DNA from: Candidatus Fraserbacteria bacterium
Lineage (GTDB): Bacteria > Bipolaricaulota > Bipolaricaulia > RBG-16-55-9 > DRXL01
Length of the DNA stretch: 64,000 bases
Assembly: GCA_947085185.1 (NCBI GenBank)
Contig: CAMTVK010000003.1
Location: 149,047-213,046 of the forward strand
Direction: 5' to 3'
Shown: in pieces, positions 43,576 through 64,000 of the stretch
Layout of the letters: each line of letters starts with the position of its first letter
How positions within the stretch are numbered: position 1 is the stretch's first letter
Position numbers and translations under genes: made by a program
Notes under the pieces: model-generated
Told to the model about the DNA's origin: nothing
Databases searched by the model: none
Seen by the model: only the letters and a program-made list of their open reading frames with translations

Positions 43576-43587
43576 GAGTGAAAGACG

Positions 43588-46507: not shown

Positions 46508-46523
46508 GGGAGGCAGAAAGAAT

Positions 46524-46844: not shown

Positions 46845-47077
46845 GCGTGATGCGCATGTGGGGACTGACGGTCGGACTGATCATAGCTTACAGATTCGTC
46901 AGCTTTGCTGATCATGAGCTGCGCCAGGGGATCTTCGATACGCTGGGCCCTACAGCGTGGGGCATGTATATGCTCTTGCCCATTCCCTTTGTGGCTCTTG
47001 GGATTGTAGGGTATTTAGTCTATCGAGCGTGGCAGGAGCCGTTAGACAAAACTCCTCCGTCGCTCAACTCAAGATGA
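46841..47077 (+). CDS. small membrane protein in the cox operon
   Basis: Overlapping start/stop with both neighbours; 2 hydrophobic segments. Confidence 0.6.
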   Translation: MSVMRMWGLTVGLIIAYRFVSFADHELRQGIFDTLGPTAWGMYMLLPIPFVALGIVGYLVYRAWQEPLDKTPPSLNSR

Positions 47078-47958: not shown

Positions 47959-48839
47959 CAACGGTAGCGCAGCATGCCGCGTTGCGCCAGAGGCTTTGGG
48001 ATTATCTGGCGCTGACCAAGCCGCGCATCACTCTGCTTGTCTTGGTGACGACAGCTGCGGCCTTTTGGGGGGCCGCGAAAGGGTCATTTTCGTTGGGACT
48101 CTTTGTGATCACGCTGGTGGGGACGGGGCTGGCCTCGTCGGCCGCCGGGGTCTTGAACTGTCTGTTTGACCGAGATATAGATGCGCTCATGGCGCGGACG
48201 GCTCATCGTCCCTTGCCGGCGGGGCGCCTCCAGCCTAAAGCCGCCGCCATATTTGGCCTGGGCTTAGCTGGGCTCTCTTTTATCATCTTAGCGTATGGGG
48301 CCAATCTCTTGGCAGCGGGCCTGGCACTCTTTGCCATCTCGTTTTACGCGTTCGTGTACACACGCTGGCTCAAGCGCACTTCGCCGTGGTGTACGGAGAT
48401 CGGCGGGATCGCCGGGGCGATTCCCCCGTTGATCGGCTGGGCCGCTGCGACGGGGCGCATCGAAGCTCCGGCGCTGGTGCTCTTTGGCATTTTATATCTG
48501 TGGCAGCCGCCGCACTTTTGGGCCTTAGCTTTGGGAAGGGTCGAGGAGTATCGGCGTGCTTATCTGCCCATTCTGCCTGTAGTATGCGGCGAGCGTGTCA
48601 CGCGCCGGCGAAGCTTGCTCTATGCGCTTGCGCTGCTGCCTGTCAGCGTGTCGTTATATATCTTTGGCGCAGTGGGGCTTGGATACGCAGTGAGCGCGGC
48701 TGTGCTGGGGCTGTATTTTATCTATCTTGCATGGCGTGACTGGCGCTGCCCAAGCCTCAAGCAGAGCCGACAGCTCTTCTTCTATTCGATGGTGCATCTG
48801 GCGTTGCTCTTCGCTCTGATCGTATTGGACTCCCGATGA
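47955..48839 (+). CDS. ctaB: protoheme IX farnesyltransferase
   Basis: LTKPR, DRDIDALMARTAHRPLPAG, WQPPHFWALA. Confidence 0.93.
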   Translation: MTTVAQHAALRQRLWDYLALTKPRITLLVLVTTAAAFWGAAKGSFSLGLFVITLVGTGLASSAAGVLNCLFDRDIDALMARTAHRPLPAGRLQPKAAAIFGLGLAGLSFIILAYGANLLAAGLALFAISFYAFVYTRWLKRTSPWCTEIGGIAGAIPPLIGWAAATGRIEAPALVLFGILYLWQPPHFWALALGRVEEYRRAYLPILPVVCGERVTRRRSLLYALALLPVSVSLYIFGAVGLGYAVSAAVLGLYFIYLAWRDWRCPSLKQSRQLFFYSMVHLALLFALIVLDSR

Positions 48840-49252
48840 ACGATGCGATCGCGTGGATTCCTACAGCCAATGCTGTGCTCAATCTCCTGAGCGCTCTTGC
48901 TATCTCTGCAGGGCTCTTTTTTATCAAGCGTGGCCAGCGCGACTATCACAAGCGCTGCATGGTGACGGCGCTTGGGTTTTCTGTGCTCTTCTTAGTGCTG
49001 TATATCATGCGCTACGCGCTGACCGGCCCGACGCCCTATCTTGGTCCGGCAAAGCCGCTCTATCTTCTCGTGTTGTGGACGCATACGCCGCTGGCTGCCG
49101 TGACTCCTATCTTGGTGATCATCGCGCTGCGGAGGGCGCTCCGAGGCGACTTCGCCCACCATAAAAAGATCGCGCGCATTACCTTCCCCATCTGGTTGTA
49201 CGTCTCCGTGACGGGCTTAGTCATCTATGGGATGCTTCATTATGTCCGTTAA
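48836..49252 (+). CDS. DUF420 membrane protein
   Basis: HKRCM, HKKIAR.TFPIWLYVSVTG. Confidence 0.88.
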   Translation: MNDAIAWIPTANAVLNLLSALAISAGLFFIKRGQRDYHKRCMVTALGFSVLFLVLYIMRYALTGPTPYLGPAKPLYLLVLWTHTPLAAVTPILVIIALRRALRGDFAHHKKIARITFPIWLYVSVTGLVIYGMLHYVR

Positions 49253-49403: not shown

Positions 49404-50558
49404 ATGCAGAATCGCACATGGTTCGGCAGGATTCTGACATTCCTGCTTGTGGCGATGCTCTTGGTCGTAGGGGCGACCGGATCGGCCCAGGACGACAAGA
49501 GCGTCAAGGATAAGGTGGCTCAGCTCGAGAAACAGCTCAAAGAGCTGGAAGCCGTGGTCAAGTCGCTCTCCATTGAGCTGCAGAAGCTCACCCAAGCCGG
49601 AACCGGCGAGATCGAGAACATCCGGCCGAGGCTCTTTGCTGTAGAGCAGCTGGCCAAAGATCTCTCGTTCGACCTCAAGAAGCTTGGTGGACGGATCAGC
49701 AATCTCGAGGGGCAAGTCGAGAAGCTGGCCGAGCTGCCCCAGCAAGTGATGGACCTCAAGTACAGTGTTGGGGAGCTCGCTAGCCGCATGAAGGCCAACG
49801 AGTTGGCCATCGGGCAGCTGCGCGATCAGCTTGAGAAGCTTGCGGGGATGCAGGCGCTCGTCATCAATTTGCAAGGGATGGTGGGCACTCTTACCAACCG
49901 TGTGGAGGGCACGGAGAAGGGCCTCGCTGCTCTCACGGACCAGGTGGGCAAACTCCAGGCGCTCACTCCGTTGGTGAAGGGCCTCCAAGACACAACGGCG
50001 AACTTAAGCGTTCGTGTGGGGCGCATTGAAGAGATGCTGGTCAAGCATACTCAACAGCTGGAGCAGCTGTCGGGCTTGCCCGGTGCTGTCGTGAACATTC
50101 AGAGCTCGGTGGGCGAGCTGGCCAGCCGCACCAGCAGCTTGGAGGGCAATTTTGCGCGACTGAGCAATATCGTCGCGTCGTTACAAGAGATGGTGAGCAA
50201 GCTCTCTGGACGTCTCGATGCTGCAGAAGCGCGTGACGACGAGACAGCGAGAAAGTTCAGCCAACTTGCGGACGGCTTCAGCAAGCTCTTGATCGACGTC
50301 GAATCTCTTAAGATCAAGATCAACGAGCTGCAAGATCGTATTGCGAAGCTTAAGGTGCCGCAGCCGGTGGAGATGCCCGATGTCAAAGCGCTCGTCCAGC
50401 AAGCTGTGGCGGAGAAGACCAAGGACTTGCAGGCGCAGTTGGCACAAGCCAAGAAAGAAGCACAAGAAGCCAAGGCTGCTGTGGAGGGCGCCAACAGCTT
50501 AGCGCTCATTGCTCTTGTAGCGGGCTTGGCTGGAGTCTTGATCGGGTTCTTGTTCTAA
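49404..50558 (+). CDS. exported long coiled-coil protein with C-terminal membrane anchor
   Basis: Signal peptide, about 330 aa of heptad repeats, C-terminal ALIALVAGLAGVLIGFLF. Confidence 0.8.
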   Translation: MQNRTWFGRILTFLLVAMLLVVGATGSAQDDKSVKDKVAQLEKQLKELEAVVKSLSIELQKLTQAGTGEIENIRPRLFAVEQLAKDLSFDLKKLGGRISNLEGQVEKLAELPQQVMDLKYSVGELASRMKANELAIGQLRDQLEKLAGMQALVINLQGMVGTLTNRVEGTEKGLAALTDQVGKLQALTPLVKGLQDTTANLSVRVGRIEEMLVKHTQQLEQLSGLPGAVVNIQSSVGELASRTSSLEGNFARLSNIVASLQEMVSKLSGRLDAAEARDDETARKFSQLADGFSKLLIDVESLKIKINELQDRIAKLKVPQPVEMPDVKALVQQAVAEKTKDLQAQLAQAKKEAQEAKAAVEGANSLALIALVAGLAGVLIGFLF

Positions 50559-50688: not shown

Positions 50689-52671
50689 TTAGCACGCGCC
50701 GGAGGTGAGCCACATATCCTGGCCTGGAGCAAGAGAATCGATTTGGGCGCACCGCCGGACCGCGAGTCTTCCCTTACTCCACCCTTCAAGCGCAATCTGC
50801 AAACCTCGCCTCGCAGGGATAGTTAGGGTTACCCAAGCTTGTCCAACGACGGGGATAGCGCGCTCCGGAAGGCCCAATGCAACAACCTTGATCTGATCAA
50901 TGCTCTTAAATTCGGTCAGATCGATGTGCACATCGGCGGAGTCAAGCAGCGCTAATAGATCTTGGGCGCGCCAGCCCTCAGTGTCAGCCGATGGCCCACT
51001 CCCCCAGACGCCCATCAAGACTTCTAAATCTGTTAAAGCCCAGCCGTTGAAGTCAGCCCGCAGCTCTCGATGGAGCAGTCCATCGCCGTTGAAGTCGAAC
51101 CGTGCATAGATAGACTCAGGAGTCGGACAGTTTTGGGGGTCGGCTTCATGCACACAGCCGTCGCCGTTGAGGTCTTTCTTGCGATGATTGCGCGTGCCGT
51201 CAAGATTTTTGCCCTCGACATAGAGCAGTGCGTCCCGAAAAGCTCTGAAATCGCGCATATCTATATTTCCGTCGCCGCGCAGGCCGTCGGGGCAGAGATT
51301 TTCAGTTTCGTGACCTTGTGCGCCTACTCTGAGATTGCCGTCGGGAGTGCAGTCGTCTACGTCCACCAGAGCGCGCTGGACCGGCCGACCCCGACGCAGT
51401 GAGTCGAGCGCGATGAGGGCACCGAAGGCGTCGATTCTAGGAGCAGGCCCTTCGCCGTTGGGGCCGCGACCCCCGGCGCTCTCCGGCTCAATCGCCCGTG
51501 CTGATTTCTGCAAAAGCTCTTTGATCTCTAAGACGGTCAAGTTCGGATCGAAAGCCAGCAAATAACCGATCAAGCCCGTGACATGCGGGGCGGCCATCGA
51601 AGTGCCGTCAAGTGTATCGTACTTCTCTCTCAGCACCGTACTGAGCACTCGGCCCCCGGGGGCCGAAAAGTGCCCGCCGACGTTGGAGAAATCTGATTTT
51701 CTGAAAGAATTCTCGCCAGACAGGATCGCATCGAACGATTCGATCACCAAAATATTTTCGGAGCGTTTGAAGGATTGGCCGTCAATCTCAAGATCGGGCG
51801 CGAGCGCGGCCCAGTTGAGCGGGCTGGCCCATTGCGCGTGAATCTCTGTGGGATAGTTGAAGCGCTTGGGGCTGTCGTTCCCAGCAGCAGCGACGAAGAG
51901 CACATTCGGATAGAGAGCGGCGAGGCGGCGCATGAACAGCCCATGCTTGACGACGAGCTGCTGTGCCTCCCCATCGAGATTGGGATTGACTTTGAGGCGC
52001 GTATTCACGGGCCAGTTGTAGCTCATGCTCACGTTGACGACGCGAATTTCTGGATAATTCTTGAGCAAACCCGCGAGAGTCTCAAGCAGCGTTTCCCAGG
52101 AGTTTCGCCAGTCTTGGCCTTGGGGAATCTTTGGAGATATGCCGATCATCTGCGCGAACGGATTGATCCCGTCAATGCCCAAACCGTTATTGAAAGTTGC
52201 TCCGATGATCCCGGCGACGTGAGCACCGTGATAGTTTGTAACTGCGCCCGATTTGGTCTTCCCATCGTCGCTCAGCATAACAGTTTTCAGATTCTTGAGA
52301 TCAGGGTGGTCGTCAAGCCCGTCGCCGTCGCGGTCTTCAAAACCAGCATCGAGAATCCCAATGAGAAATCTCTGAAAATATCCGGTGCGCTGGACGTAGT
52401 CATTAAGATTCCAAAGCTGAGGAACTCTTATAGCTTCTAATCCCCAGTTGCCGTCGGTCTCTCTGCCTGAAGAAGGGGGCCAATTCCAGCGCCAGGGATT
52501 GGGATTCAGCCCAGAGGGCACATCAGAAGAATTGTCCTTGACGACGGGGTCTTGCGCGTTACTGGGGGCAGGGATGATGGCCAGGAGAAAAGCTTTTGTC
52601 GCAGGCTCGCTTGAGCGGAGCCCGCCCACCAGCACAAGCGCCAAGAAGAGCAAGCGCAGCGCGCGGTCCAT
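50689..52671 (-). CDS. secreted S8 subtilase with C-terminal Ca-binding (dockerin/EF-like) motifs
   Basis: ILDAG, HGAHVAG, AAAGN, GTSMAAPHV; DGNIDMRD, DLNGDG, DFNGDG. Confidence 0.88.
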   Translation of the reverse strand: MDRALRLLFLALVLVGGLRSSEPATKAFLLAIIPAPSNAQDPVVKDNSSDVPSGLNPNPWRWNWPPSSGRETDGNWGLEAIRVPQLWNLNDYVQRTGYFQRFLIGILDAGFEDRDGDGLDDHPDLKNLKTVMLSDDGKTKSGAVTNYHGAHVAGIIGATFNNGLGIDGINPFAQMIGISPKIPQGQDWRNSWETLLETLAGLLKNYPEIRVVNVSMSYNWPVNTRLKVNPNLDGEAQQLVVKHGLFMRRLAALYPNVLFVAAAGNDSPKRFNYPTEIHAQWASPLNWAALAPDLEIDGQSFKRSENILVIESFDAILSGENSFRKSDFSNVGGHFSAPGGRVLSTVLREKYDTLDGTSMAAPHVTGLIGYLLAFDPNLTVLEIKELLQKSARAIEPESAGGRGPNGEGPAPRIDAFGALIALDSLRRGRPVQRALVDVDDCTPDGNLRVGAQGHETENLCPDGLRGDGNIDMRDFRAFRDALLYVEGKNLDGTRNHRKKDLNGDGCVHEADPQNCPTPESIYARFDFNGDGLLHRELRADFNGWALTDLEVLMGVWGSGPSADTEGWRAQDLLALLDSADVHIDLTEFKSIDQIKVVALGLPERAIPVVGQAWVTLTIPARRGLQIALEGWSKGRLAVRRCAQIDSLAPGQDMWLTSGAC

Positions 52672-52753: not shown

Positions 52754-53531
52754 TCAAGTCCTTGCAAGCGCAAGGTCTTCAGCGATCTCGCGTATCCTCT
52801 GGGGATCAGGGAACTCTATACGACAGCGATCACGACGGATCAGGCCTCGCTTGATAAATTTGCACAGCACCACCGAGACGCTCTCTGGGGTGCTGCCCAC
52901 AAGATCAGCAATATTATAGTTGCTCAGCAGCAGCTCATTACTCTGGAGGGAGAATAGCTGAGAATGATTGCACAAACGTTCGTAATCTGCCCCCCCCCCC
53001 CCCGAATTGAGCAAACGTTTGCTTTTCGTGTAGATAACTTAACAAATAGGCAATCTTCTCTTCGATGCTGGCGTGGAGCGCAGAGCTTAGGCGACGTTGC
53101 ACGGCACCAGCGATTTGAGCAACTCGGCGACTGATCTCGCCCAAAAATTCCGGGCGACGACGTATCAGCTCAAGGAGCTGAACGCGGTCGAGCCGGATGG
53201 CTATGGTCTTAGAGAGCGTTTGGGCGGAGGTGTCAAACTCCGGTTCTTGAGCGAGCAGCTCACGCGCGCCGAGCAGCTCTCCGGGGCCGCAGATGTCTAT
53301 CCCGGCGACCTTGCCGCGCACGGTGCGTCGGGTGACTATGACGAAACCGCTACAGATGCTGTAACAGCACAGCACTGGGTCTCCCTGCTCGATCAGGATC
53401 GTGCCGCGGCGATAGATGCTCAAGCGCGGGGTGATGAGCTCCTTCGGCAGCCAATGGAGCAGACAGCCCTTGTTGGGGCAGCAGCTTGTCTGGTGGGAGC
53501 GCGCAGGAGAATCTGTCAATTTGATGGCCAT
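52754..53531 (-). pseudogene. Crp/Fnr family regulator split by a frameshift in a G14 tract (possibly phase-variable)
   Basis: cNMP-binding-fold domain in 52938..53531; HTH LSNYNIADLVGSTPESVSVVLCKFIKRGLI in 52754..53014; C14 at 52990-53003. Confidence 0.8.
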
Positions 53532-53567: not shown

Positions 53568-53768
53568 TTAGGGAAGGGGGTTGGGGTTAGGTTTTTCCGC
53601 CTCGAGCTCGTCCAGGTATCTCTCGACGGCCTCCAGCACGAGAAAGTTGAGCGACCGTTTTTGCTGTTGTGCGATCTTCTTGAGGCGCTCCAGCAGCTGT
53701 TGGTGTCGTTTTTCTTTGGGGATATAGACTGTCAGCTGCCAGGGCGTCTCCCCGTTTCGCCGAGCCAT
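53568..53768 (-). CDS. ribbon-helix-helix DNA-binding protein
   Basis: LTVYIP…LLERLKKIAQQQKRSLNFLVLEAVERYL; GAGGTG SD. Confidence 0.8.
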   Translation of the reverse strand: MARRNGETPWQLTVYIPKEKRHQQLLERLKKIAQQQKRSLNFLVLEAVERYLDELEAEKPNPNPLP

Positions 53769-53826
53769 CAGGCTCACCTCATTATACTCTAGTTGAGTCT
53801 ACTTGGGAAGTGCCGGGGGCGTCCAT

Positions 53827-53904
53827 AAGCTAGCTTAAGTTCGAGCTTAAGCTAGCTTAAGTTCTTTCTTAAGGAAGCCGAAGTTCTTTCTTAAGCTAGC
53901 TTAT
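53827..53904. promoter_or_regulatory. 22-bp-period operator/iteron-like array
   Basis: Units start at 53827, 53849, 53871 and 53893 (AAGCTAGCTT+AAGTTCNNNCTT); the palindrome TAAGCTAGCTTA occurs 3 times. Confidence 0.7.
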
Positions 53905-53958
53905 GGTCGGGGAGGGGAGGTCGCGCTAGAGTGAGGGAGCAGTGAGCGGTCCATCTCA

Positions 53959-54140
53959 GAGGGAGCGAGCGGGGCGGGGTGCCGAGTCCGGGGATGGCCC
54001 ACAGGGAGCCCCGCACCCTGCCCCCAAGACAGGTGAAGGGAGGTGAGAGATGGAGCAGGTTCACAGGGCCCAGGGCGAGCCCTAATCTTCGCCCAAAAGT
54101 CAGACCAAATCTATCTAAAGGAGGAGATGTCGATGTTCAA
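53959..54140 (+). repeat. cassette leader repeat L1 (hairpin, uORF, SD)
   Basis: Near-identical to 56194-56313, 61643-61780 and 63808-64000. Confidence 0.9.
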
Positions 54141-54768
54141 CAAGAAATTCAAGCTCATCGCAACGGCGGTTGGGTTGGTGGCGGTGCTGGCGTTGGGGTT
54201 GGCAATGCCGGGGGCGACGCAACCATCTCCGGACTGTCCTCCTGTTGGAATACCTTGCGTTGATAGAGTCGAACTTGTAAAGGGCCTTCAGAATGCTTTC
54301 GCAGGCCTAACGGCTAGCACAGAAGATTTACTGGATTTCGAGCAAGCTGTCTTCTGGTCAGATGGTGGACCTCGTCAGATAATCTATATACCTCCCCATA
54401 CTGCCTCCGGCATCTGGGACATTGCGCGGCGACTTCGTGCTGGTGAGAAGATACCTGATATTCCATTTGGAGGACTTTATGTAATAGAAGATGCTACAGG
54501 CCTTTTCACCTTCAGGACCCCCGCGGCCGTCAAGCTACGGTTACGGGATGGCAATAGGGTGGTCTTCGTTAATTCCGAGGGAGACGAGGTGATGACGATA
54601 CCGGCAAATCTTGACCTTACTACACCGATTCCACAAAACCCAAGTAGGGCCATCTTCACGGTAGAAATCCGAAACAACTGGTGTGCCAAGATCAAGATCT
54701 TTTGTGTGGGGGAGGCTTCTATACATAGCAGTCTATTGTTGAGTCACCCGGATGGGTGCACACAATAA
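54133..54768 (+). CDS. secreted precursor P1 (array family)
   Basis: Signal MFNKKFKLIATAVGLVAVLALGLAMPGATQ; shared LTAxT…YIPPH…GxLYV domain; Cys-containing C-terminus. Confidence 0.8.
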   Translation: MFNKKFKLIATAVGLVAVLALGLAMPGATQPSPDCPPVGIPCVDRVELVKGLQNAFAGLTASTEDLLDFEQAVFWSDGGPRQIIYIPPHTASGIWDIARRLRAGEKIPDIPFGGLYVIEDATGLFTFRTPAAVKLRLRDGNRVVFVNSEGDEVMTIPANLDLTTPIPQNPSRAIFTVEIRNNWCAKIKIFCVGEASIHSSLLLSHPDGCTQ

Positions 54769-54921
54769 GGCTGCCTACGGATCGGTATGCCCGCCCCCGA
54801 GTACAGTTGTGCAGTGAGTGACTCCTACTTGACTTATATACATAGGGAGCAGGGACCTCTGACATTTGACAAGCCTGGCCCTGCTCCCTTAAACTTTTTT
54901 TCATTAACAAGAGGTGCTCAT

Positions 54922-55704
54922 ATGTGGTGGGGTTTCAAATTAGCAGGCTTCTTCGTTGCAATTCTGGGATTATCTCTCGTCTTTTCGCTCTTGGTCAACT
55001 TGTGGAGTCAAAAGGCTCTACCGCGTGACCCCTCCACCGGCAAACTCAACATTAAGGTTGATCCTTGGATTCTCGCATTGGTGGTCTTAGGCACATCACT
55101 TTTGATGGTGCGGTATCTTGACCATCGGCCTCTCGCGAGTCTGGGGCTTCATTTTTACTCTTCGTGGTGGATGGAGCTTGCTCTGGGAATCGTTTTTGGA
55201 AGCGCCATGTTGATTAGTATGGCAACCCTGCTGTGGGCCTTCAGCAGGCAGAATCCATTTATGAAGTTCTCGATGACCCCATATTCCACACTGCTAAGCC
55301 ATTTGCGTGGCTCTCTCGGAGAAGAGCTTGCTGTTCGTGGTTATCCCCTTCAGGTTCTTATAGATGCGCTTGGCACATATCCTGCTCTCTTAGCAACCTC
55401 TGCTTTCTTTGGGCTTTTGCATTATCGAGATCAGCGCTTGATCGGAGCGATAGACACCGGGTTGGTCGGTTTGCTTTTGGCTACGACTATACTCAAAATG
55501 AATGCCCTCTGGCTAGCGGTCGGCATCCATTTCGGTTGGAACTTTGTAGAAGCGCTTCTCAGTCTGGGAGAAGTCACTTCCCGAGAGCGCTATCTGGCCG
55601 AGATGATGGTCATTGTCCTTTTCTGGCTTCTTCTGATATTGCTGCCGATCCAACCGCACCCGGAGATGGAAAGGCTTTGGAACGAGTATATTGTGCAGCC
55701 TTAG
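54922..55704 (+). CDS. CPBP/Abi (CAAX) intramembrane metalloprotease
   Basis: EELAVRGY, FGLLH, HFGWN. Confidence 0.88.
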   Translation: MWWGFKLAGFFVAILGLSLVFSLLVNLWSQKALPRDPSTGKLNIKVDPWILALVVLGTSLLMVRYLDHRPLASLGLHFYSSWWMELALGIVFGSAMLISMATLLWAFSRQNPFMKFSMTPYSTLLSHLRGSLGEELAVRGYPLQVLIDALGTYPALLATSAFFGLLHYRDQRLIGAIDTGLVGLLLATTILKMNALWLAVGIHFGWNFVEALLSLGEVTSRERYLAEMMVIVLFWLLLILLPIQPHPEMERLWNEYIVQP

Positions 55705-55707
55705 AAG

Positions 55708-55780
55708 GGGCCACTACAACAATGAATCTGCGCAAAGTTCTTCAGACGCTGGAGCTGGCCGCGGGCTGCGGGGCCGTAGG
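55708..55780 (+). repeat. cassette closing repeat R1
   Basis: CAGACGCTGGAGCTGGCCGCGGGCTGCGGGGCC core, shared with R2-R4. Confidence 0.7.
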
Positions 55781-55961
55781 CTACTTGGCTTTCTTCAAGA
55801 AATCCTCCGGCGTGAGAGCCATCTCCCTCTGCTCCGCTTGGTTGACTCTTGAGAATTTGGTAAGAGGCCTTCCAAAGTGCCTTCCTTGTCCCTGGCTCGA
55901 CCTCCTTGGTCAGCCAGTTGATGAGGACGTCTGTGTCCAAGAAGACCCTAGTAGCGGCCAT
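55781..55961 (-). pseudogene. PIN-domain (VapC-like) toxin, internally deleted
   Basis: N-terminus VFLDTDVLINW; out-of-frame C-terminus ALTPEDFLKKAK*. Confidence 0.7.
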
Positions 55962-56139
55962 ACCCGCTCTCGCGCAGCTCTCTCAGATATTCTGTGCTGG
56001 TCTTCTCTTTGGGTATGGCGTCCTCAAAGGCTCCCAGCAGCTCGTCCACCACACCAGTCTTCTTGGTGGGGGCAGGGGCACTGATTGTGTAGCCGAAGTT
56101 TTCCATCAGCTTTACCAACTCTTGGAGAGCTAGGGGCAT
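55948..56139 (-). CDS. putative antitoxin
   Basis: 63 aa ending STEYLRELR (VapB-like tail); overlaps the PIN start. Confidence 0.65.
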   Translation of the reverse strand: MPLALQELVKLMENFGYTISAPAPTKKTGVVDELLGAFEDAIPKEKTSTEYLRELRESGYGRY

Positions 56140-56193
56140 AGCTTGGTCCTCCTCTCTGAGCTCGATTGTACACAACTCTCACGCCATCAGCCA

Positions 56194-56313
56194 GATGGCC
56201 CACAGGGAGCCCCGCACCCCGCCCCAAGACTCAAGGTGAAGGGAGGTGAGAGATGGAGCAGATTCACAGGGCCTAGGGCGAGCCCTACCTTCGCCCGAAA
56301 GTCAGACCAAATC
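56194..56313 (+). repeat. cassette leader repeat L2 (5'-truncated)
   Basis: GATGGCCCACAGGGAGCCCCGCACCCCGCCCC…GTCAGACCAAATC. Confidence 0.88.
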
Positions 56314-56321
56314 CATTTGAA

Positions 56322-56383
56322 CAAGTTCCAAGTGACAAGTTACAAGTTCTGAACTTTGAACTTGGAACTTTAAACTTTGAACT
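56322..56383. repeat. heptamer palindromic repeat (CAAGTTN)4 / (GAACTTN)5
   Basis: CAAGTTC CAAGTGA CAAGTTA CAAGTTC T GAACTTT GAACTTG GAACTTT AAACTTT GAACT. Confidence 0.8.
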
Positions 56384-56384
56384 G

Positions 56385-56632
56385 TCTCACAGCGGTGCTG
56401 GTGTTGGGGTTGGCAATGCAAGCAGCAGCAAGCGAAGTATTACTAGACCCCGAGGGTCGTGAAGAAGTTTCCGAGCGGCATCGAGTTCATCCGGGCAGGC
56501 ATGGTGCTGTTTGAATCTCTTCCTGGTACTGCTGGTGACGCCAAAACCCTTGACGCAGCGCCCTTAGATGACAAGTGCAACTGCGCGGTAGCAGTAGCGA
56601 TCATAATCGCTGCTTTGATCGCACTGCTCTAG
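56385..56632 (+). pseudogene. remnant of secreted precursor P2
   Basis: AVLVLGLAM (signal tail) joined to VLLDPEG/VVKKF…DDKCNCAVAVAIIIAALIALL* across a frameshift. Confidence 0.6.
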
Positions 56633-56776
56633 CATAATCGCCTCTGATAGGCTAGCAACCGAAACAAGAGATCAGGCCGGTGGTTCAGTCCGCTCCTGCT
56701 GAGCCCGCCGGCATTATTTGACAAAGCGGTGGGCATTAAATTAAATTAAGATAGCATCAACAAAGGGGGCAAGTGG

Positions 56777-57511
56777 TTGATTGAGGTTTTTGACCTAAAG
56801 AAGCATTTTGGCACCACCAAGGCAGTAGATGGGGTCAGCTTTGCTGTACAGCGGGGCGAGATCTTCGGACTCTTGGGCCCTAACGGGGCTGGCAAGACCA
56901 CAACCCTGCGCATGCTCGCTACTATTCTGCAACCGACAGAGGGCGACGCGATCATTAACGGCTATAGCATATACCGAGACCCACAACAAGTGCGCCGACA
57001 ACTGGGAGTGCTTGCCGAACAGACCGGTCTCTATGACCGCCTGACTGCCGAAGAAAATGTGCGTTACTTTGCCCGCTTACGCCGACTCCCAGAAAGCGTC
57101 ATCAATCGTAGGATCGCCGAGCTCTTTCCCAAGCTGGGCATCGATAAGTACGCCCACAAACGCGCCGGACAACTCTCCAAGGGGATGAAGCAAAAGGTGG
57201 CCATCGCCATCGCGATCATTCATGACCCCCCTGTAATGATATTCGATGAGCCCACCTCGGGTCTGGACATTATCGCAGCCCGCGAGGTGCGAGAGTTCAT
57301 TAAGGCCTGTAAGCACTCAGACAAGGCTATGATTCTCTCAACGCACATCATGTCCGAAGCCGAGAAGCTCTGCGACCGGATTGCCATCATCAATGGTGGA
57401 AAGATCGTGGCAAACGGAACATTTGCCGAGCTACAGCAGCATAGCGGCAAGAGAGAGCTAGAAGAAATCTTCGTTAAGCTGGTTGCAGAGGGGGAAGCTT
57501 ATGGAGCTTAA
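56777..57511 (+). CDS. ABC transporter ATP-binding protein (NatA-like)
   Basis: GPNGAGKTT, LSKGMKQK, FDEPTSGLD, STH. Confidence 0.92.
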   Translation: MIEVFDLKKHFGTTKAVDGVSFAVQRGEIFGLLGPNGAGKTTTLRMLATILQPTEGDAIINGYSIYRDPQQVRRQLGVLAEQTGLYDRLTAEENVRYFARLRRLPESVINRRIAELFPKLGIDKYAHKRAGQLSKGMKQKVAIAIAIIHDPPVMIFDEPTSGLDIIAAREVREFIKACKHSDKAMILSTHIMSEAEKLCDRIAIINGGKIVANGTFAELQQHSGKRELEEIFVKLVAEGEAYGA

Positions 57512-58709
57512 TCAAGTGCGGGTCGTTCTGGGCAAGGAATTGGTGGACTCGTTCCGCGACCTGCGGAGCACATGGCTGATGATTTTAACCCCGGTTGCTC
57601 TGGCGCTGCTCTATTTCTTCGGCGCGGCTTACGGCCCCTCAGCTCAGCTAGAGAAACAGCGTGAGATGGCACAAGAAATTGCAATCGTTACGAATAGTCG
57701 CAATGAACGCTTAACTCGGGAGTGGAAAGAATTGTTGGGCAAAAGGGGTCTCATCATGAAAGAAACAATCGATCCGGAGCGGGCCTTGGCCGAGCGGGAT
57801 CTGGCGGCGGTGCTCGTCTTGCCTAACGATTTTTCAGATCTCCTCGAGCGCGGCGAGCCTGCCTCGGTCGTGCTGAAGTTCGATGCTCTGAGGATTGAAT
57901 CTCAGATCGCACGCGAGAAACTTAGAGCTTTCTTGCAAGATTACGAACAGACCGTCATCGCGCAGCGGTTGGCGGACCGTAATGTCCCACCAGATGTCCT
58001 AGAAGCCGTGGTCGTCCGCGAAGAGAACACAGCCCCCCGTGGTGGCGTGGCGTGGATGCGGGTGGGACTCATGCTGTCGTTTCTCTTGCTTGGTTGGAGT
58101 GTAGCAAGCGTCTTCAATGTGGCGGCGGATCTGACAGCGGGGGAAAAGGAGCGCGGCACGTTGGAGGCGCTGCTCGCCATGCCCACGGGGCGCTTGGACA
58201 TAGTACTGGGGAAATTTCTGGCCGTGTTGGTCATAACTCTGTGCACGATGGCTTCCAGCGTACTGAGCTTATGGCTCTTGGTCGAGCTTCTCGGTCCTAC
58301 ACTGCTCTCCAGCGGGTTCCTGCAGGATTTTACGCACGCGCTAGCTCCTCCAGTCTTGGGACCGGCGGTCGTTGTCGCGAGCTTCACCGCGGCCTTGATG
58401 GGAGCACTGAGTTTAGCTCTTTGTCTGCGGGCCCGCAGTTCGCGCGAGGCCCATAGCTACTCTATGCCTATCTTCCTAGGAGTCGCGTTTGCTATATTCT
58501 TCGTAGAGTTCCGCGAGATTGGGATCTCACTGCCAGCTCTGGTTATCCCGGTGTACAATGCCGTGTTGATCCTCCGAGAGCTGTTCCAAGGGCAGCTGAA
58601 TCCAACGCATTTGGGGGTCACTCTGGCTGTTCTCGCCCTGTGCGCGGTTGTTGGACTCTGGCTCGCAGTGCGCGCCTTCAAGAGCGAAAAGGTTTTGTTC
58701 CGGCAGTAG
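57501..58709 (+). CDS. ABC-2 type permease (NatB-like)
   Basis: KELVDSFRD, AGEKERGTLEALL…VLGKF. Confidence 0.88.
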   Translation: MELNQVRVVLGKELVDSFRDLRSTWLMILTPVALALLYFFGAAYGPSAQLEKQREMAQEIAIVTNSRNERLTREWKELLGKRGLIMKETIDPERALAERDLAAVLVLPNDFSDLLERGEPASVVLKFDALRIESQIAREKLRAFLQDYEQTVIAQRLADRNVPPDVLEAVVVREENTAPRGGVAWMRVGLMLSFLLLGWSVASVFNVAADLTAGEKERGTLEALLAMPTGRLDIVLGKFLAVLVITLCTMASSVLSLWLLVELLGPTLLSSGFLQDFTHALAPPVLGPAVVVASFTAALMGALSLALCLRARSSREAHSYSMPIFLGVAFAIFFVEFREIGISLPALVIPVYNAVLILRELFQGQLNPTHLGVTLAVLALCAVVGLWLAVRAFKSEKVLFRQ

Positions 58710-58760
58710 AGGCACTACAGGCCTGCAACAAGGAGCCCTGTGGACGCTGGTCCGGGGCCA
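58710..58760 (+). repeat. cassette closing repeat R2 (degenerate)
   Basis: GGCACTACA…CTGC…GGACGCTGG…CGGGGCC. Confidence 0.5.
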
Positions 58761-58761
58761 C

Positions 58762-58844
58762 GCCGCCCGCTGCACCTCATAGCCTGCCCCACGTAAGAAG
58801 TTTACCGTCGCCTGCCAGACATCTTGATCACTGAGAAAGCGCAT
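58762..58844 (-). pseudogene. DUF5615 PIN-like toxin, truncated
   Basis: MRFLSDQDVWQATVNFLRGAGYEV; TAATG-coupled to DUF433; similarity ends at R2. Confidence 0.7.
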
Positions 58845-59074
58845 TAGATGTGAGTGAGATGGACCTCTTCCGACTTGACCAACTCCGTAGCATAGCGCAC
58901 GCAGGCTTGCACATCCTCTACTGTCAAGTCGGGGTAATATTGCTCGACGATCTGGGCAAAGGGGATGCCAGCCTGGACAAGCTCCAGCACACACCAGACG
59001 GGAATGCGAGTGCCCTCTAGAATGGGCTGACCAAAATGGATCTGCGGATCGACGACGATGCGACGCACAGCCAT
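58844..59074 (-). CDS. DUF433 antitoxin-like protein
   Basis: IVVDPQIHFGQPILEGTRIPV…YPDLTVEDVQACVRYA. Confidence 0.9.
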   Translation of the reverse strand: MAVRRIVVDPQIHFGQPILEGTRIPVWCVLELVQAGIPFAQIVEQYYPDLTVEDVQACVRYATELVKSEEVHLTHI

Positions 59075-59136
59075 CTGCTCCTCTCTGTAACAGTAGCTGG
59101 CCTCATTGTATAGCTATCCTGGCCTTGAGGCAACTT

Positions 59137-59835
59137 GTGTACAACAAGGAGTTCAAGCTCATCGGAACGGCGGTCGGGTTGGTAGCGGTGCTGATGATGG
59201 TGTTAGCGGTGCCGGGGGCGACGCAAGGCTCCTTCTCACGTCAAGCGCTTGTCAGCGCTTTAAAGAGTGAAATTGGTCCTCTGCTAACCGCTGCTACCGC
59301 TGAGTTGATTAATCCAGAGAATGCGACGTTTTTCTCGTCCAATAGGGCTACGTCAGCTTATATTCCACCCCATCCTTCTGCCTTCTCAGCTCAGCTCTTT
59401 AGAGATTTTATGTCCGGTAAGGCAGAAGGTATCTTGATGGGGGCCGTTTATGTAAGCGAGGATGTTCCTGGATCTTTGAACAAAGGTCTCTATCGGATTA
59501 AAGCTCTTAACCGAGAATGGGTGGTGGTGCTCAATCAAGAAGGCGAAGTGGTAAGAAGGGCCCGGATTCGGTGGTTAGTGGATGATGTAGAAGGTATCGC
59601 CTCAAATCCTTCGTACTGGGGAAAGGACAACTATATACAACTTTCTGTTGGCAGTGTAGATAACATTCATCGTTTCAACGGCGGCGGGGGCGGGGGCGGG
59701 GGCGGGACTACACAGCCGCCTCCACCGCCACCGCCGCCTGAGCCTCAGCCTTTGTCTTTCAAGCACACCGTCTCAATCTGTACGCCTACCATTATTATTG
59801 TATATTGTTTCACCTTTATGGAGGTTCACATTTAG
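59137..59835 (+). CDS. secreted precursor P3 (array family)
   Basis: (M)YNKEFKLIGTAVGLVAVLMMVLAVPGATQ; LTAAT…YIPPH…GAVYV; Gly9/Pro8 linker; C-x8-C tail. Confidence 0.8.
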   Translation: MYNKEFKLIGTAVGLVAVLMMVLAVPGATQGSFSRQALVSALKSEIGPLLTAATAELINPENATFFSSNRATSAYIPPHPSAFSAQLFRDFMSGKAEGILMGAVYVSEDVPGSLNKGLYRIKALNREWVVVLNQEGEVVRRARIRWLVDDVEGIASNPSYWGKDNYIQLSVGSVDNIHRFNGGGGGGGGGTTQPPPPPPPPEPQPLSFKHTVSICTPTIIIVYCFTFMEVHI

Positions 59836-59937
59836 GCTTGGCAAACCCTAGCTTTTTGCTACCAGCCTAAGACGAAGAGGTGGCCGAGGGAAGTTTGACA
59901 CCCGCTTCCCTCGGCCATTATGATATAAGGGGGTTTT

Positions 59938-60930
59938 ATGTTCAAAGTCCTGCTGAAGATTGTAGCATTCTTCAAAGTCTTGTTGAAGATCGTCGCATTC
60001 CTCGTGCTGGCCTTTATTTTGGGTGTCGTTCTAAACCCGTTTATTAACCTGCTGCTCTACTGGCTACTCCAGCCTCTACGGTGGCTTGGATTACCGGAGA
60101 GACTTCTGAATGATCTGGGGCTGACAGGCAAATTTGAGTGGTTTATTATCAAGGGCTTTTCTTTTGTACCGGCCTTGCTGATAGCTTCGCTAGTTATGAC
60201 CCGCCTACTCGAGCACCGCCCTATGGCTTCCCTTGGATTTAGCTTGTCCCCACGCTGGCTCAAGGAATTTGCTCTTGGTATCCTGCTTGCCTTCGTAGCT
60301 ATGACTCCTGTAGTAATCATGCTCTACCTTTTAAATCCTTATATATCAATCCGCCCACTTTCTGGAGTTGGAATGCAAGATCCAAGGACTTACATCAGTA
60401 CTCCCAACGACTGGTTCACCGTTGGTATTGTAGTAGCATTGTTAACCCTTTTGGCGGCAGCCTTTGAAGAACTGATCTTTCGCGGCTATCTCTTCCAGAC
60501 CCTGATGGCGGCAATAGGCCAGTGGCCAACCATCTTAGCGACTTCTAGTATTTTTGCCGTCTTACATTTTAGGACTCATGGGGTCAGCGCTATAGTTGCA
60601 GCAGGCATCGGAGGGCTGATCATGGCTTTACTGTATCTTAGGAGTAAATCTTTGTGGGTAGTTATAGGCTTTCACGCTGGGGTCAATGGATTTATGGGTA
60701 TAGCAGTAATTCTAGGGCTGATTTTTCATAAAAGAGAACTCGGAGAGAACTGGCTCTACCCTGGGATAACGGGGGCCATGGCACTGATCTTGGCCATATG
60801 GTCACTGAAATATCTGAAACCCTCGGCGGAGATGGAAGCGCTCTGGCAGCAGTATGTGCCCATCGCCCAGCCGTGGGCGCAATTGAAGGCATGGTGGGCC
60901 AAACGCAAAGGCCAACGAGAGGTCAGCTAA
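59938..60930 (+). CDS. CPBP/Abi (CAAX) intramembrane metalloprotease
   Basis: EELIFRGY, FAVLH, HAGVN; shares HRPxASLG and EMExLWxxY with 54922..55704. Confidence 0.9.
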   Translation: MFKVLLKIVAFFKVLLKIVAFLVLAFILGVVLNPFINLLLYWLLQPLRWLGLPERLLNDLGLTGKFEWFIIKGFSFVPALLIASLVMTRLLEHRPMASLGFSLSPRWLKEFALGILLAFVAMTPVVIMLYLLNPYISIRPLSGVGMQDPRTYISTPNDWFTVGIVVALLTLLAAAFEELIFRGYLFQTLMAAIGQWPTILATSSIFAVLHFRTHGVSAIVAAGIGGLIMALLYLRSKSLWVVIGFHAGVNGFMGIAVILGLIFHKRELGENWLYPGITGAMALILAIWSLKYLKPSAEMEALWQQYVPIAQPWAQLKAWWAKRKGQREVS

Positions 60931-60971
60931 CGCTACGGACGCTGGAGTTGGCGGGCTGCGGGGCCATAAGG
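60931..60971 (+). repeat. cassette closing repeat R3
   Basis: GGACGCTGGAGTTGGCGGGCTGCGGGGCCATAAGG. Confidence 0.7.
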
Positions 60972-60976
60972 AGCAC

Positions 60977-61360
60977 CTACTCCACTCTTACCTCCCCCGT
61001 GCGCAAATCGATTATCACACACCGCCCACGCAAAAAGTCCAACCCTAATACCCCATCGACCGTCGCACTCGGCGGCAAGGTGTGACAGAGCACCGGAAAA
61101 TCACGGCGCTCCTGCCCTAACGCCTCTACCCGCTCTATCGACACCTGCGGGACAAATTCCACACCGCTCCCCGTCGTCATCGACACGCGCTGCGGCACTG
61201 CTGCTGGATCATACCCCACCAATACCAGCACATCCCAGCTTACCACTGTCCGTGTGGCTCCAGTGTCCAGCGCCAAGCGCACCACGGTATCGCCCGAGGG
61301 GCCAAAGAGCCGCGTCGGTACAACGATCAGCCCGGCAGTGGGATCGAAGCGCAGGCTCAT
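60977..61360 (-). CDS. single-domain retropepsin-like aspartyl protease
   Basis: ALDTGAT…DGVLGLDFL. Confidence 0.85.
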   Translation of the reverse strand: MSLRFDPTAGLIVVPTRLFGPSGDTVVRLALDTGATRTVVSWDVLVLVGYDPAAVPQRVSMTTGSGVEFVPQVSIERVEALGQERRDFPVLCHTLPPSATVDGVLGLDFLRGRCVIIDLRTGEVRVE

Positions 61361-61584
61361 AAGACCACAGCGACTTCGTCAGGGAGCTTGCCCGTATAGA
61401 GAATCGCCGAATGCTTGGGGCGCAGCTCTCGTGCCTTGCGGTAGACCTCATCGCGGTCCTTGCTGTGCCATAGGACTTTCCCTGCTATGATGGTGAGAGA
61501 CTCGGTCGCCTTCGGATCTTCGAGCAAGACCCATTCTGCTGGGAACCGTTCTTGGATTTCAGCTAAGGAGAGCACTTCGTCCAT
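61357..61584 (-). CDS. small partner protein (DUF5678-like) of the aspartyl protease, TA-like pair
   Basis: ERFPAEWVLL…GKVLWHSKDRDEVYRKA; ATGA overlap. Confidence 0.7.
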   Translation of the reverse strand: MDEVLSLAEIQERFPAEWVLLEDPKATESLTIIAGKVLWHSKDRDEVYRKARELRPKHSAILYTGKLPDEVAVVL

Positions 61585-61642
61585 ACATACCCCTTTCATA
61601 GAGAGCTCGCTTTATCTTAGAGCTATGGAGGCGCCAGGTCAA

Positions 61643-61780
61643 GGAGCCCTGCACCCTGCCCCAAGACTCAAGGTGAAGGGAGGTGAGAGATGGAGCAGGT
61701 TCACAGGGCCCAGGGCGAGCCCTAATCTTCGCCCACAATCTAGACCAAATCTATCTCACAGAAGGAGATGTCGATGTTCA
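61643..61780 (+). repeat. cassette leader repeat L4 (5'-truncated)
   Basis: GGAGCCCTGCACCCTGCCCCAAGACTCAAGGTGAAGGGAGGTGAGAGATGGAGCAGG…GGAGATGTCGATGTTCA. Confidence 0.9.
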
Positions 61781-62727
61781 ATAGGTTCTGCAGGATAAGC
61801 CAACTGGCAAAGATATTCAGCGTCATTACGATGTCAGCCTTGTTGCTCTGGGCAACATCCGGTATGTCAGTGGTTAGTCAACAGGTCCAGATGCCTACCA
61901 GAAACCAAATCGTTCAAGGGCTTAGAGCGAAGGTGGCAGCGCTGACAGCAGCGGAAGGAGATATCTTTGATATTGAGAATACAGCCTTCTACTCTGATCC
62001 AGGTGTGTTTTCTCTAGCGTTCATTCCCCTTCACCCTTCTTCGCGATCTTTGCAACTTATTCCCAAGCTTGTGGAGGAGGACATAGGGGCTGTGACCTTC
62101 GGGGTTCTCTATCTTGAGGGAGATTGGCCAGACACGGACTTGCCGCTGAAAGCCGGTATCTACACGTTGAAACTCAAGAGCGATCACTCTGTCGTAGCTG
62201 TTGCGGAAGACGAGGAGTTTCAAATTTGCGCTGGCAGTTGGAGACTGCTACCTGCACCTGTGTTTTCGACACCTGTGCCCCCTATCACCGAGTTCTCTTT
62301 CAGCTACCAGCCGGAGCCTAGCACTAGTACAGGCACTCCTATGTTAGAAAGTCTGAATATCCTTACGGCGCTAGCTTTTATATTGGTTTCAACAGAAAGG
62401 GATGATGCCTATGAAAGGATGCCCTATGAAAGATCGGCTTGGTATAGCGTTGCTTGTTCTATGTATGCAGAGTATAGTATTATATATGGTGATGATCGTT
62501 GCCTATGGGCTGTATTTGCCAATAACGATTATACTAATCATCTCATCTTCTCGGCCGCTTTGTGGCTATGGGTCGCTCTTCACCACATGAGAAAGAGAGC
62601 AGCTCTTGAAAGCACCTCTTCACTGAGACAGCTCAACTTTGTGATAGGTGCTGCATTCGTGATCGTCATTGCAACTCTTACTACCGCTGGCATCGCTATC
62701 ATTTGCGCTATCCAAGGAAGCAAGTAA
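61774..62727 (+). CDS. secreted precursor P4 (array family) with hydrophobic multi-helix C-terminus
   Basis: LTAAEGDIFDIENTAFYSD…FIPLHPS…FGVLYLEGD…GIYTLKL shared domain. Confidence 0.8.
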   Translation: MFNRFCRISQLAKIFSVITMSALLLWATSGMSVVSQQVQMPTRNQIVQGLRAKVAALTAAEGDIFDIENTAFYSDPGVFSLAFIPLHPSSRSLQLIPKLVEEDIGAVTFGVLYLEGDWPDTDLPLKAGIYTLKLKSDHSVVAVAEDEEFQICAGSWRLLPAPVFSTPVPPITEFSFSYQPEPSTSTGTPMLESLNILTALAFILVSTERDDAYERMPYERSAWYSVACSMYAEYSIIYGDDRCLWAVFANNDYTNHLIFSAALWLWVALHHMRKRAALESTSSLRQLNFVIGAAFVIVIATLTTAGIAIICAIQGSK

Positions 62728-62793
62728 AGTCGTAATATTTACGGCATTCTCAGTATGCCTACATTCTTAGCGAGCTGACAAGGGAAGAGACCT

Positions 62794-62865
62794 GGGCCAA
62801 GTTGCAGAATATGGACCTGCATGAGGTGCTCCAGACCCTGGAGCGGGCCGCGGGGACATGAGGCC
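62794..62865 (+). repeat. cassette closing repeat R4
   Basis: ATGGACCTGCATGAGGTGCTCCAGACCCTGGAGCGGGCCGCGGGGAC, compare R1 ATGAATCTGCGCAAAGTTCTTCAGACGCTGGAG. Confidence 0.65.
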
Positions 62866-63174
62866 TTACTGACGTCCCTTCACGAGCGTCTTGGCACTCT
62901 TTAATCCTTCACGATACTCCTCCACAGTGACCTTGGATCTGACCCCGCGACTAGCTAAGAGATCCATATATTCGCCCACAGAAAGATCAGCTAATTTGGC
63001 CCCCTCACTCAGCGAGACCCGATCCTCTACAAAGAGCTTGATCGCATACTCCCGCCGCACCAGCGCCACCCCAGACCGCAAAGCCTGCTTGAGCAGAAGC
63101 TCCTCCTCCACCGGCTCGTACTTACTGAGATCCTTCAGGAACTCCTGCACCTCTTGTGGAACTTCAACGCGCAT
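62866..63174 (-). CDS. UPF0175 family antitoxin-like protein
   Basis: AIKLFVEDRVSLSEGAKLADLSVGEYMDLLASRGV. Confidence 0.85.
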   Translation of the reverse strand: MRVEVPQEVQEFLKDLSKYEPVEEELLLKQALRSGVALVRREYAIKLFVEDRVSLSEGAKLADLSVGEYMDLLASRGVRSKVTVEEYREGLKSAKTLVKGRQ

Positions 63175-63694
63175 GCAGATCACCTCGTGCTTGTTCTAGG
63201 AGAGCGCTGCTATACCATCCATACCTCTCCAGCTGATGGAAGGCCTGCCACGCTTTGTCCCTATTAATTATACGCTCTCTGCGCAGCTCCACCAACACGT
63301 CCAAAGCTGTAGCAGAGTGCAAGCCTAAGGCCTTGCAAGCGGTGATGCCCCTTTTGTCGTCCATGAGCACTGTGTCTAGTCCCAAGTCTTGAGCTAAGGC
63401 GATCACGTCTCGCTCACCACCACGCAGCCCAAAGAGAGTTTGGATAGTTTGTTGACGGCTAGGACGGGGATGAAGCGTTTGCAGATGGTGCGCTTGGAAG
63501 TGGAGCTCCAATTGGAGGGCATCGGCATGACCTCTGGTCTTGCCCTTGAGCACGGCCTCCTCGTAGACACTTGGGGGGACGATGATGTGTACCCTGGTTA
63601 GGAGACTATCCAAAAGGCTACTCTTGGTGAGGAGGATAAGGCTGGAGGCGTCGGCAACTACTGTTGGCTTCGTGGTGGATTGCTTCCTAGCCAT
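63164..63694 (-). CDS. PIN-domain protein (DUF3368-like)
   Basis: VVADASSLI, VPPSVYEE, GERDVIALA, LMDD. Confidence 0.85.
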   Translation of the reverse strand: MARKQSTTKPTVVADASSLILLTKSSLLDSLLTRVHIIVPPSVYEEAVLKGKTRGHADALQLELHFQAHHLQTLHPRPSRQQTIQTLFGLRGGERDVIALAQDLGLDTVLMDDKRGITACKALGLHSATALDVLVELRRERIINRDKAWQAFHQLERYGWYSSALLEQARGDLHAR

Positions 63695-63807
63695 TGGAGC
63701 TCAGGCGTAGTGTAGCATGGAAAGAGCAGAGCGGTGAAGGACGGGCTTCTCCTTGCATGCGGAAAGGGTTCTCTAGTACTGTTCCCTTCGCAAGATGTTC
63801 GCAAGGC

Positions 63808-64000
63808 GAGAGTGAGGGAGCGAGCGGGGCGGGGTGCCGAGTCCGGGGATGGCCCACAGGGAGCCCCGCACCCCGCCCCCAAGACTCAAAGTGAAGGGAG
63901 GCGAGAGATGGAGCAGACCCGCAGGGCCCAGGGCGAGCCCTACCTTCGCCCGAAAGTCAGACCAAATCTATCTCACAGAAGGAGGAGATGCTGATGTTCA
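63808..64000 (+). repeat. cassette leader repeat L5 (full length); next precursor P5 starts at ATG 63994
   Basis: Perfect GGGGCGGGGTGC/GCACCCCGCCCC stem, uORF, AAGGAGGAG SD, ATGTTCA at the window end. Confidence 0.9.

Follow-up and report, generated by a model that had tools for sequence, protein, structure and literature searches.

An array of precursor and partner genes in Candidatus Fraserbacteria, probably encoding Sec-exported pro-bacteriocins on a previously unnamed prodomain

Candidatus Fraserbacteria bacterium is described as a hot-spring organism of a little-studied phylum. We analysed 64,000 nucleotides at the end of its contig C3 (this whole stretch is called the window below), which carry an array of cassettes in which a secreted-type precursor (P1 to P4) is followed by a partner gene. 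Our analysis suggests that this array probably encodes Sec-exported pro-bacteriocins with cognate immunity, similar in layout to SdpC/YitM and built on an unrelated prodomain. A preliminary description had proposed both Sec-exported pro-bacteriocins and polymorphic toxins. The first proposal has gained support from hypervariable hydrophobic or Cys-rich tails, from immunity-type partners that carry their own hairpin and promoter, and from the matching of partners to tail classes. The second, in which C-termini are exchanged on a constant N-terminus, fits the data poorly. Alignment continuing past the signal peptide was also found, as were variable C-termini linked to CPBP and ABC genes, the opposite of what had been named as telling against the earlier proposals. 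The precursor family appears to have been unnamed until now, and the cassette array itself looks like a variation on a known pro-bacteriocin layout.

A shared domain with hypervariable tails

The open reading frames reported earlier were all present, and P1, P3 and P4 indeed align over the motifs given for them (blastp E 4e-20 to 1e-10). With the signal peptide removed, their domains scored 98, 108 and 118 against shuffle means of ~25, values reached by 0 of 1000 shuffles. The tails of the same three proteins are unrelated, scoring 21, 27 and 23, which is shuffle level (211 to 671 of 1000 shuffles reach these scores). P1 and P3 have a near-identical signal region, with 85% identity across 89 nt. 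The shared domain is real, but at about 115 aa it is shorter than the ~130 aa first proposed. For tail statistics we used 106 full-length members, after dropping 28 of 134 (22 partial sequences and 6 suspected fusions or frameshifts, including P4); the Pro-rich linker is present in most of these, with at least two Pro within the first 25 post-domain residues in 82 of the 106.

P2 had been called a remnant, and its tail is 41% identical over 61 aa to that of an intact member, P0074 (E 3e-13), next to a 10-aa piece of the domain; by its sequence it is a member with two deletions. A low-complexity AAGTT/AACTT inverted-repeat insertion (56323-56382) stands in place of its ribosome-binding site and start. 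P4 had been credited with a hydrophobic core of ~130 aa, which did not survive closer inspection. Over 305 nt, the region 62551-62854 is 68% identical (E 1e-22) to a separate gene for a 98-aa three-helix protein, which in genome G012 lies after an intact P4-type precursor and has a second free-standing copy, P0191. Therefore, P4 appears to be a precursor with a truncated core, fused by read-through to its partner. This read-through, like the G14 break in a regulator gene described below, is known from the assembled contig alone and may instead be an assembly error.

The family is not confined to this host. A five-sequence profile recovered 38 proteins, and a domain-only profile run against 1.84 billion representatives (50% identity level) recovered 90 at E <=0.001. 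When a wider profile was run on 184 genomes from the phylum, 20 gave a match, among them 9 of the 13 that belong, besides this host, to the genus. Members with taxon names belong to Candidatus Bipolaricaulota; two homologs are labelled archaeal, probably through misbinning, as the only record of the genome collection in which P0022 appears is from Bipolaricaulota. A Pfam and NCBIfam scan of 45 precursors gave no family matched by more than two members and nothing better than E 0.002. P1, P3 and P4 match no Pfam family, a search of PDB sequences with the domain profile gave 0 matches, and the ESM Atlas search yielded no usable match. AlphaFold predicted a confident alpha/beta domain (pLDDT 82.8 and pTM 0.78 for P1; 76.3 and 0.62 for P0033). 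Foldseek and VIA searches with the two models gave no match that stood out from background, with best Z values of 4.2 and 4.4 and nothing at Foldseek E <=0.001, a result that does not in itself establish a new fold.

The tails range from 34 to 106 aa and form 27 clusters among the 106 members. At 50-60% domain identity, tail identity is already at shuffle level (median 0.20 versus 0.17). Cys accounts for 3.7% of tail residues versus 0.3% in the domain, with 10 of 106 tails lacking it, and close Cys pairs are enriched in tails (19 of 47 versus 13.7 expected; 4 of 500 shuffles). A membrane-length hydrophobic stretch (19-residue hydropathy of at least 1.6) occurs in about half of the tails (51 of 106) and in none of the domains. 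Most other tails are of beta type, with Cys and alternating hydrophobic residues, and in several the last residue is aromatic. At loci L067 and L070, outside the window, precursors with GxxxG helices stand in tandem pairs, and at least five different tails are found within one genome.

According to the preliminary description these tails are swapped on a constant N-terminus, as in polymorphic toxins. Our data argue against such exchange: paralogous domains are only 25-40% identical, and of the 48 pairs whose domains are at least 75% identical, just 1 shows tail identity below 25%. Nine hand-assigned tail classes, covering 92 of the 106 members, track the FastTree domain tree and require 9 changes on it, against a minimum of 8. 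Therefore, the tails seem to evolve fast on their own prodomain and not to be freely swapped. The signal peptide, by comparison, is common across distant domains, in that, among 156 pairs whose signals are at least 75% identical, 96 have domains less than 40% identical. As read from these patterns, the leader and signal peptide are homogenised, and domain, tail and partner travel together behind them. By sequence features the signal peptide is of Sec type, with a basic n-region, a hydrophobic h-region and a conserved Gln preceded by G-[AV]-T or V-V-S; none of the 84 members examined has a twin-Arg motif.

Variability of this kind bears on an explanation that we regard as unlikely, namely that these are envelope or surface proteins in which the domain is the functional part, the tail either anchors the protein in the membrane (if helical) or is a beta element that is inserted by BAM or resembles amyloid, and CPBP acts as a myxosortase-like enzyme. 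Sorting systems show the opposite of the situation here, where the supposed anchor would vary more than the protein it carries and each gene would have a partner to itself, even if the presence of BamA, the failure to find a secretin in the genome, the aromatic ends of several beta tails and the confidently modelled P1 tail would all suit such proteins. The CPBP proteins do match myxosortase models, weakly and under cut-off. However, CTERM sorting signals are described as requiring, besides a transmembrane segment, both a Cys motif and an Arg-rich cluster (bioRxiv 10.1101/2023.06.07.544157). Judged against the CPBP-processed signals MYXO, JDVT, Synerg and CGP, only 2 of 106 tails have a basic end (at least three K/R in the last 10 residues), and the 10 without Cys depart from them as well.

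Partner genes and the proposed function

Several partner types follow the precursors: CPBP proteins, an HExxH-like protein, membrane proteins of 63 and 98 aa, and an ABC-2 transporter. The HExxH-like family comprises 51 membrane-anchored proteins with an invariant HE and a GL motif (genes at L001 3218-4177 and L002 9425-10465), which we take to be gluzincin-like; it has no Pfam match, and its profile gave 0 matches in a search of PDB sequences. The 3′ end of this gene persists as a stub after most units. Four of the six CPBP genes of the genome are located in the array. A separate case is genome G028 (L064 480-2030), where a truncated precursor precedes two membrane proteins, one weakly matching a daptide intramembrane metalloprotease model; by sequence these two are a further partner type.

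In the units viewed, partner type tracks tail class. The NP.W tail class is paired with one CPBP clade (support 100/100) in 6 of 6 cases, including 2 remnants. Similarly, the HExxH-like partner accompanies tail class E in 3 of 3 units and class A2 in 2 of 2, the 98-aa partner accompanies helix class B in 2 of 2, and the 63-aa partner accompanies the tandem pairs in 2 of 2. P1 and P6 form an exception, as their domains are 65% identical and yet their partner types differ. The partners also appear to be separately expressed. Of 26 pre-partner spacers, 20 contain a perfect stem of at least 8 bp (0.7 in shuffles; 24 of 101 genomic control gaps) and 18 a promoter match of at least 9/12 (36 of 101 control gaps). 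Within 10 kb, the three best promoter matches lie directly ahead of the three intact partners. Unlike partners, tandem precursors and the PIMT gene of a distant subfamily (see below) start within a few bases of the preceding gene. Finally, the precursor is broken while the partner frame is open in eight units (P2, C28, G005, G013, G004, G028, L069 and L073), and the reverse state, with the partner decayed or lacking and the precursor intact, was seen in two (G007 and L071).

Matching between partner and tail, together with intact CPBP motifs, would also suit maturation, as expected if the tails were secreted signal or self-recognition peptides (pherotypes) that a partner protease matures or senses, with no killing involved. 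CPBP family members such as MroQ are among the weak matches, and a regulator is located at the array head. Nevertheless, we find this account improbable: the units examined contain no sensor kinase or receptor gene, the partners include an ABC transporter as well as non-enzymes (the proteins of 63 and 98 aa), they have promoter motifs of their own and outlast their precursors, and a single genome has at least five different tails.

Under the pro-bacteriocin reading, the precursor would be exported by Sec and cleaved before the conserved Gln. The shared domain would act as a cognate chaperone, holding the hydrophobic tail in solution and inactive, a role suggested because the domain co-descends with its tail class. 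An extracytoplasmic protease, for instance the linked S8 subtilase (50689-52671), a candidate maturation protease, might then free a tail of 20-45 residues, which might in turn act on the membranes or envelope of target cells and kill competitors. The separately transcribed partner would degrade (CPBP, HExxH-like), bind (two- to three-helix proteins) or expel (ABC) its cognate peptide. Recombination between the leader/signal repeat at one end and the 3′ stub at the other would exchange units, with the array-specific toxin-antitoxin pairs moving along, and expression would be under a phase-variable CRP-type regulator.

A number of results weigh against this proposal. The SdpC prodomain model (TIGR04032) matched 0 of 45 members and nothing in the host genome, with a positive B. 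subtilis control, and SdpB was not found in this 96.8%-complete genome (SdpA was not searched for). BamA is present and neither a secretin nor a C39 transporter (PF03412) was found in the genome; therefore, passage of a Sec-exported precursor across the outer membrane is unexplained. Most tails are neutral or acidic, their GxxxG motifs show no family-wide enrichment, and no cleavage motif is common to all tail classes. Asn-Pro, considered as a possible autocleavage site, occurs in 37 of 106 tails versus 18 expected, but this enrichment weakens after dereplication, to 10 of 47 versus 6.6 expected. The three tail strands of the P1 model are confidently predicted (pLDDT ~88) and could belong to the fold. 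Catalytic motifs are intact in all CPBP proteins, a state compatible with a role in processing as much as in immunity. Moreover, the units behind the partner matches and decay counts come from related genomes and are not independent, and some depart from the pattern: a CPBP remnant stands beside the intact precursor of G007, an aspartyl protease takes the partner's place in G004, and in L071 a partner is lacking. Complex prediction for a class-B tail with its 98-aa partner scored 0.01 and was not used as support.

A broader version of the proposal is possible, although we hold it only tentatively. The undescribed prodomain, possibly with a new fold, could be a general export chaperone for a very wide range of membrane-active peptides across the phylum. 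Its cargo could include single helices, two-peptide pairs, disulfide beta-hairpins whose aromatic ends may target the assembly of the outer membrane and, within a sister clade, PIMT-modified cores of ribosomally synthesized and post-translationally modified peptides (RiPPs), all borne on recombining arrays with tailored immunity, including the orphan HExxH-like protease family, and a phase-variable CRP switch.

If the pro-bacteriocin reading is true, the family would amount to a large reservoir of antibacterial peptides, likely thermostable, that carry no annotation and are missed by profile libraries, and would provide a concrete competition system for Bipolaricaulota. One scaffold for helical, two-peptide, beta-hairpin and possibly RiPP cores makes prodomain-cargo matching testable, the array makes it testable whether CPBP proteases serve immunity or maturation, and each precursor-partner pair consists of two genes that are readily expressed. 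No description of the family was found in the literature, of which listings and the first parts of abstracts were covered and most subscription journals fell outside coverage; within the same limits, pairing the phylum names with bacteriocin or polymorphic toxin gave no paper on such systems.

Array layout, regulation and surroundings

Each unit runs from leader to precursor, spacer, partner gene, a short HExxH-like 3′ stub and an opposite-strand toxin-antitoxin-like pair. The leader of ~150 nt is repeated before P1, P2 and P4 and at the window end, and what paralogous units have in common at the DNA level lies mostly in the leader, the signal peptide and the stub. Two further intact precursors, along with two decayed units, are found on contigs C23 and C28.

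Table 1. Features of the array and its head (window positions)
Position	Strand	Feature	Remarks
50689-52671	-	S8 subtilase with D/H/S motifs	PF00082 E 4e-29; also next to array heads in G012, L068
52754-53531	-	CRP-family regulator (PF00027)	split by out-of-frame G14 run at 52990-53003
53568-53777	-	ribbon-helix-helix-like small regulator, divergent from array	weak ribbon-helix-helix matches under cut-off; 71-89% identical copies at 6 other array heads
53824-53908	.	tandem TTAAG-N6-CTTAA boxes	22-bp period
53959-54132	+	leader repeat	GC-rich hairpin and ribosome-binding site
54133-54768	+	P1 precursor	signal peptide, ~115-aa domain (residues 43-157), Pro linker, beta-type Cys tail
54866-54895	+	sigma70-like promoter of CPBP1	TTGACA-18-TAAACT, 10/12
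54922-55704	+	CPBP1, partner of P1; likely immunity	PF02517 E 6e-14; catalytic motifs intact
55722-55781	+	3′ stub of HExxH-like partner gene	conserved right flank of the unit
55701-56175	-	inverted toxin-antitoxin-like pair	75 aa and internally deleted PIN-like gene; longer orthologs in G004, L067 arrays; PIN label by resemblance
56194-56316	+	leader repeat, unit 2	
56392-56632	+	P2 remnant	partial signal, 10 aa of domain, tail; deletions and frame change; matches P0074
56718-56747	+	sigma70-like promoter of ABC genes	TTGACA-18-TAAATT
56777-58709	+	ABC-2 ATPase and permease, partner of P2	likely efflux-type immunity
58700-59074	-	inverted DUF433 gene (PF04255)	with broken downstream partner
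59137-59835	+	P3 precursor	GTG start, leader lost; domain, poly-Gly/Pro spacer, beta-type Cys tail
59881-59924	+	13-bp hairpin	overlaps sigma70-like promoter (11/12)
59938-60930	+	CPBP2, partner of P3	PF02517 E 6e-19; catalytic motifs intact
60977-61599	-	inverted DUF5678 and aspartyl-protease pair	orthologs in other arrays
61640-61773	+	leader repeat, unit 4	
61774-62727	+	P4, helix-class precursor	core truncated; apparent read-through into 3′ half of 98-aa three-helix partner (from ~62551)
62765-62864	+	3′ stub of HExxH-like gene	88% over 34 aa to intact gene on C23
62866-63694	-	inverted UPF0175 and 176-aa PIN-like pair	PIN label by resemblance; without Pfam match
63814-64000	+	leader repeat and start codon (63994)	further unit at contig end

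The array head combines the divergent ribbon-helix-helix-like gene with the CRP-family gene, sometimes followed by the S8 protease, an arrangement that recurs at other heads. The CRP-family gene is likely phase-variable, to judge from its G run, which is an out-of-frame G11 in G011 and an in-frame G6 in L068; the gene is truncated in G012 and G001. The TTAAG-N6-CTTAA boxes lie at 8 of 8 array heads examined, and the genome contains only four of them, two at this head. Their 22-bp period is presumably a CRP-type geometry, and the tandem boxes are likely an operator. An orphan box with a leader and no precursor behind it was seen at L008 5526-5690 (C2 ~69525-69690).

Rfam scanning of 53700-64000 gave nothing near gathering score. 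RNAalifold of 12 leaders yielded a weak consensus, with two-sided change in one of nine pairs, and single 5′ leader hairpins fold with z of -1.0 to -3.4. Several leader copies contain a second strong ribosome-binding site and a short upstream open reading frame (54048-54083, 63909-63996); others have MT-stop.

The toxin-antitoxin pairs are specific to the arrays: compared with the DUF433 gene here, array copies in other species are 83-90% identical, and the four other genomic copies found by BLAST are 39-50% identical. The broken gene downstream of this DUF433 gene is, we assume, DUF5615-like. Toxin-antitoxin genes are common in this genome, with 19 PIN matches, two of them in the array. With its repeated leader, inverted toxin-antitoxin pairs and many broken genes, the region could be mistaken for an integron-like or decaying cassette island whose precursors are passengers with no common role, but this is very improbable. 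The repeat always precedes one protein family, and in several species the arrays begin with the same regulator and boxes. Furthermore, no recombinase lies near the array, the three tyrosine recombinases of the genome being on contigs C17 and C30.

Contig C23 starts and ends with an identical 141 nt (L001 1-141, 5015-5155), which is also the start of C28 (reversed; L002 end); it is either an assembly-breaking tandem repeat or the trace of an excised circle. Upstream of the array head lie a 384-aa secreted-type coiled-coil protein with a C-terminal helix (49404-50558), conserved next to arrays in L067 and L094, and a cytochrome c oxidase-like operon with heme and assembly genes (42775-49252; recognised by eye).

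Comparison with known systems

Polymorphic toxins such as CDI, Rhs and MafB share with the array tandem toxin-like and partner units, decayed units that retain partners, and conserved flanks at which recombination could take place. Judged by position only, cognate partners here lie directly downstream and orphan partners are kept, as in those systems. However, exchange in the array apparently occurs at the signal peptide and not at a C-terminal junction, and the tails are peptides and not enzyme domains. Integrons offer little likeness, as no integron integrase is found next to the array (attC sites were not formally searched).

RiPP precursors accompanied by an FxLD/graspetide-type PIMT resemble a distant subfamily of the precursors (hhalign 97.4%) and not the units of the window. 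Its members, which include P0062, lie outside the window (L033, L034, L035, L086 and L089) and end in C..[TS]NQx. A homolog of this PIMT type follows directly in 5 of 6 loci viewed and is fused once, with TIGR04188 and TIGR04364 scores below cut-offs. No other RiPP enzymes were recognised by eye near this subfamily, which is possibly a new RiPP class.

Class II bacteriocins have short leaders and usually a C39 ABC exporter, whereas the array encodes a folded prodomain of ~115 aa behind a Sec-type signal in a genome with no C39 gene. Nevertheless, in those with Abi/CPBP immunity (SkkI, PlnI, PlnL) a hydrophobic peptide is likewise followed by a gene for a CPBP or small membrane protein. Class IIb two-peptide bacteriocins have two adjacent peptides with GxxxG helices and one immunity gene; the tandem GxxxG pairs at L067 and L070 may be a counterpart, although the motif is not enriched across the family. 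Abi/CPBP proteins, small membrane proteins and ABC transporters are listed as immunity types for bacteriocins (PMC8538875).

The closest parallel is SdpC/YitM, described as having a signal, a conserved N-terminal three quarters, a C-terminus that is both unique and hydrophobic, and a downstream gene for the cognate membrane antitoxin (PMC6818787). Indeed, Bacillus subtilis SdpC/YitM with SdpI/YitQ shares with the array a precursor of ~200 aa, a Sec signal, a conserved N-terminal part, a group-specific hydrophobic C-terminus and a downstream membrane partner. The array differs in having many tandem units behind a repeated leader, a much wider range of tails (helices, beta-hairpins and tandem pairs), at least four partner types, interleaved toxin-antitoxin pairs and a host with BamA. 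The best fit is thus an array that, with neither homology nor SdpB, is no member of the SdpC family but appears to work in an SdpC-like way.

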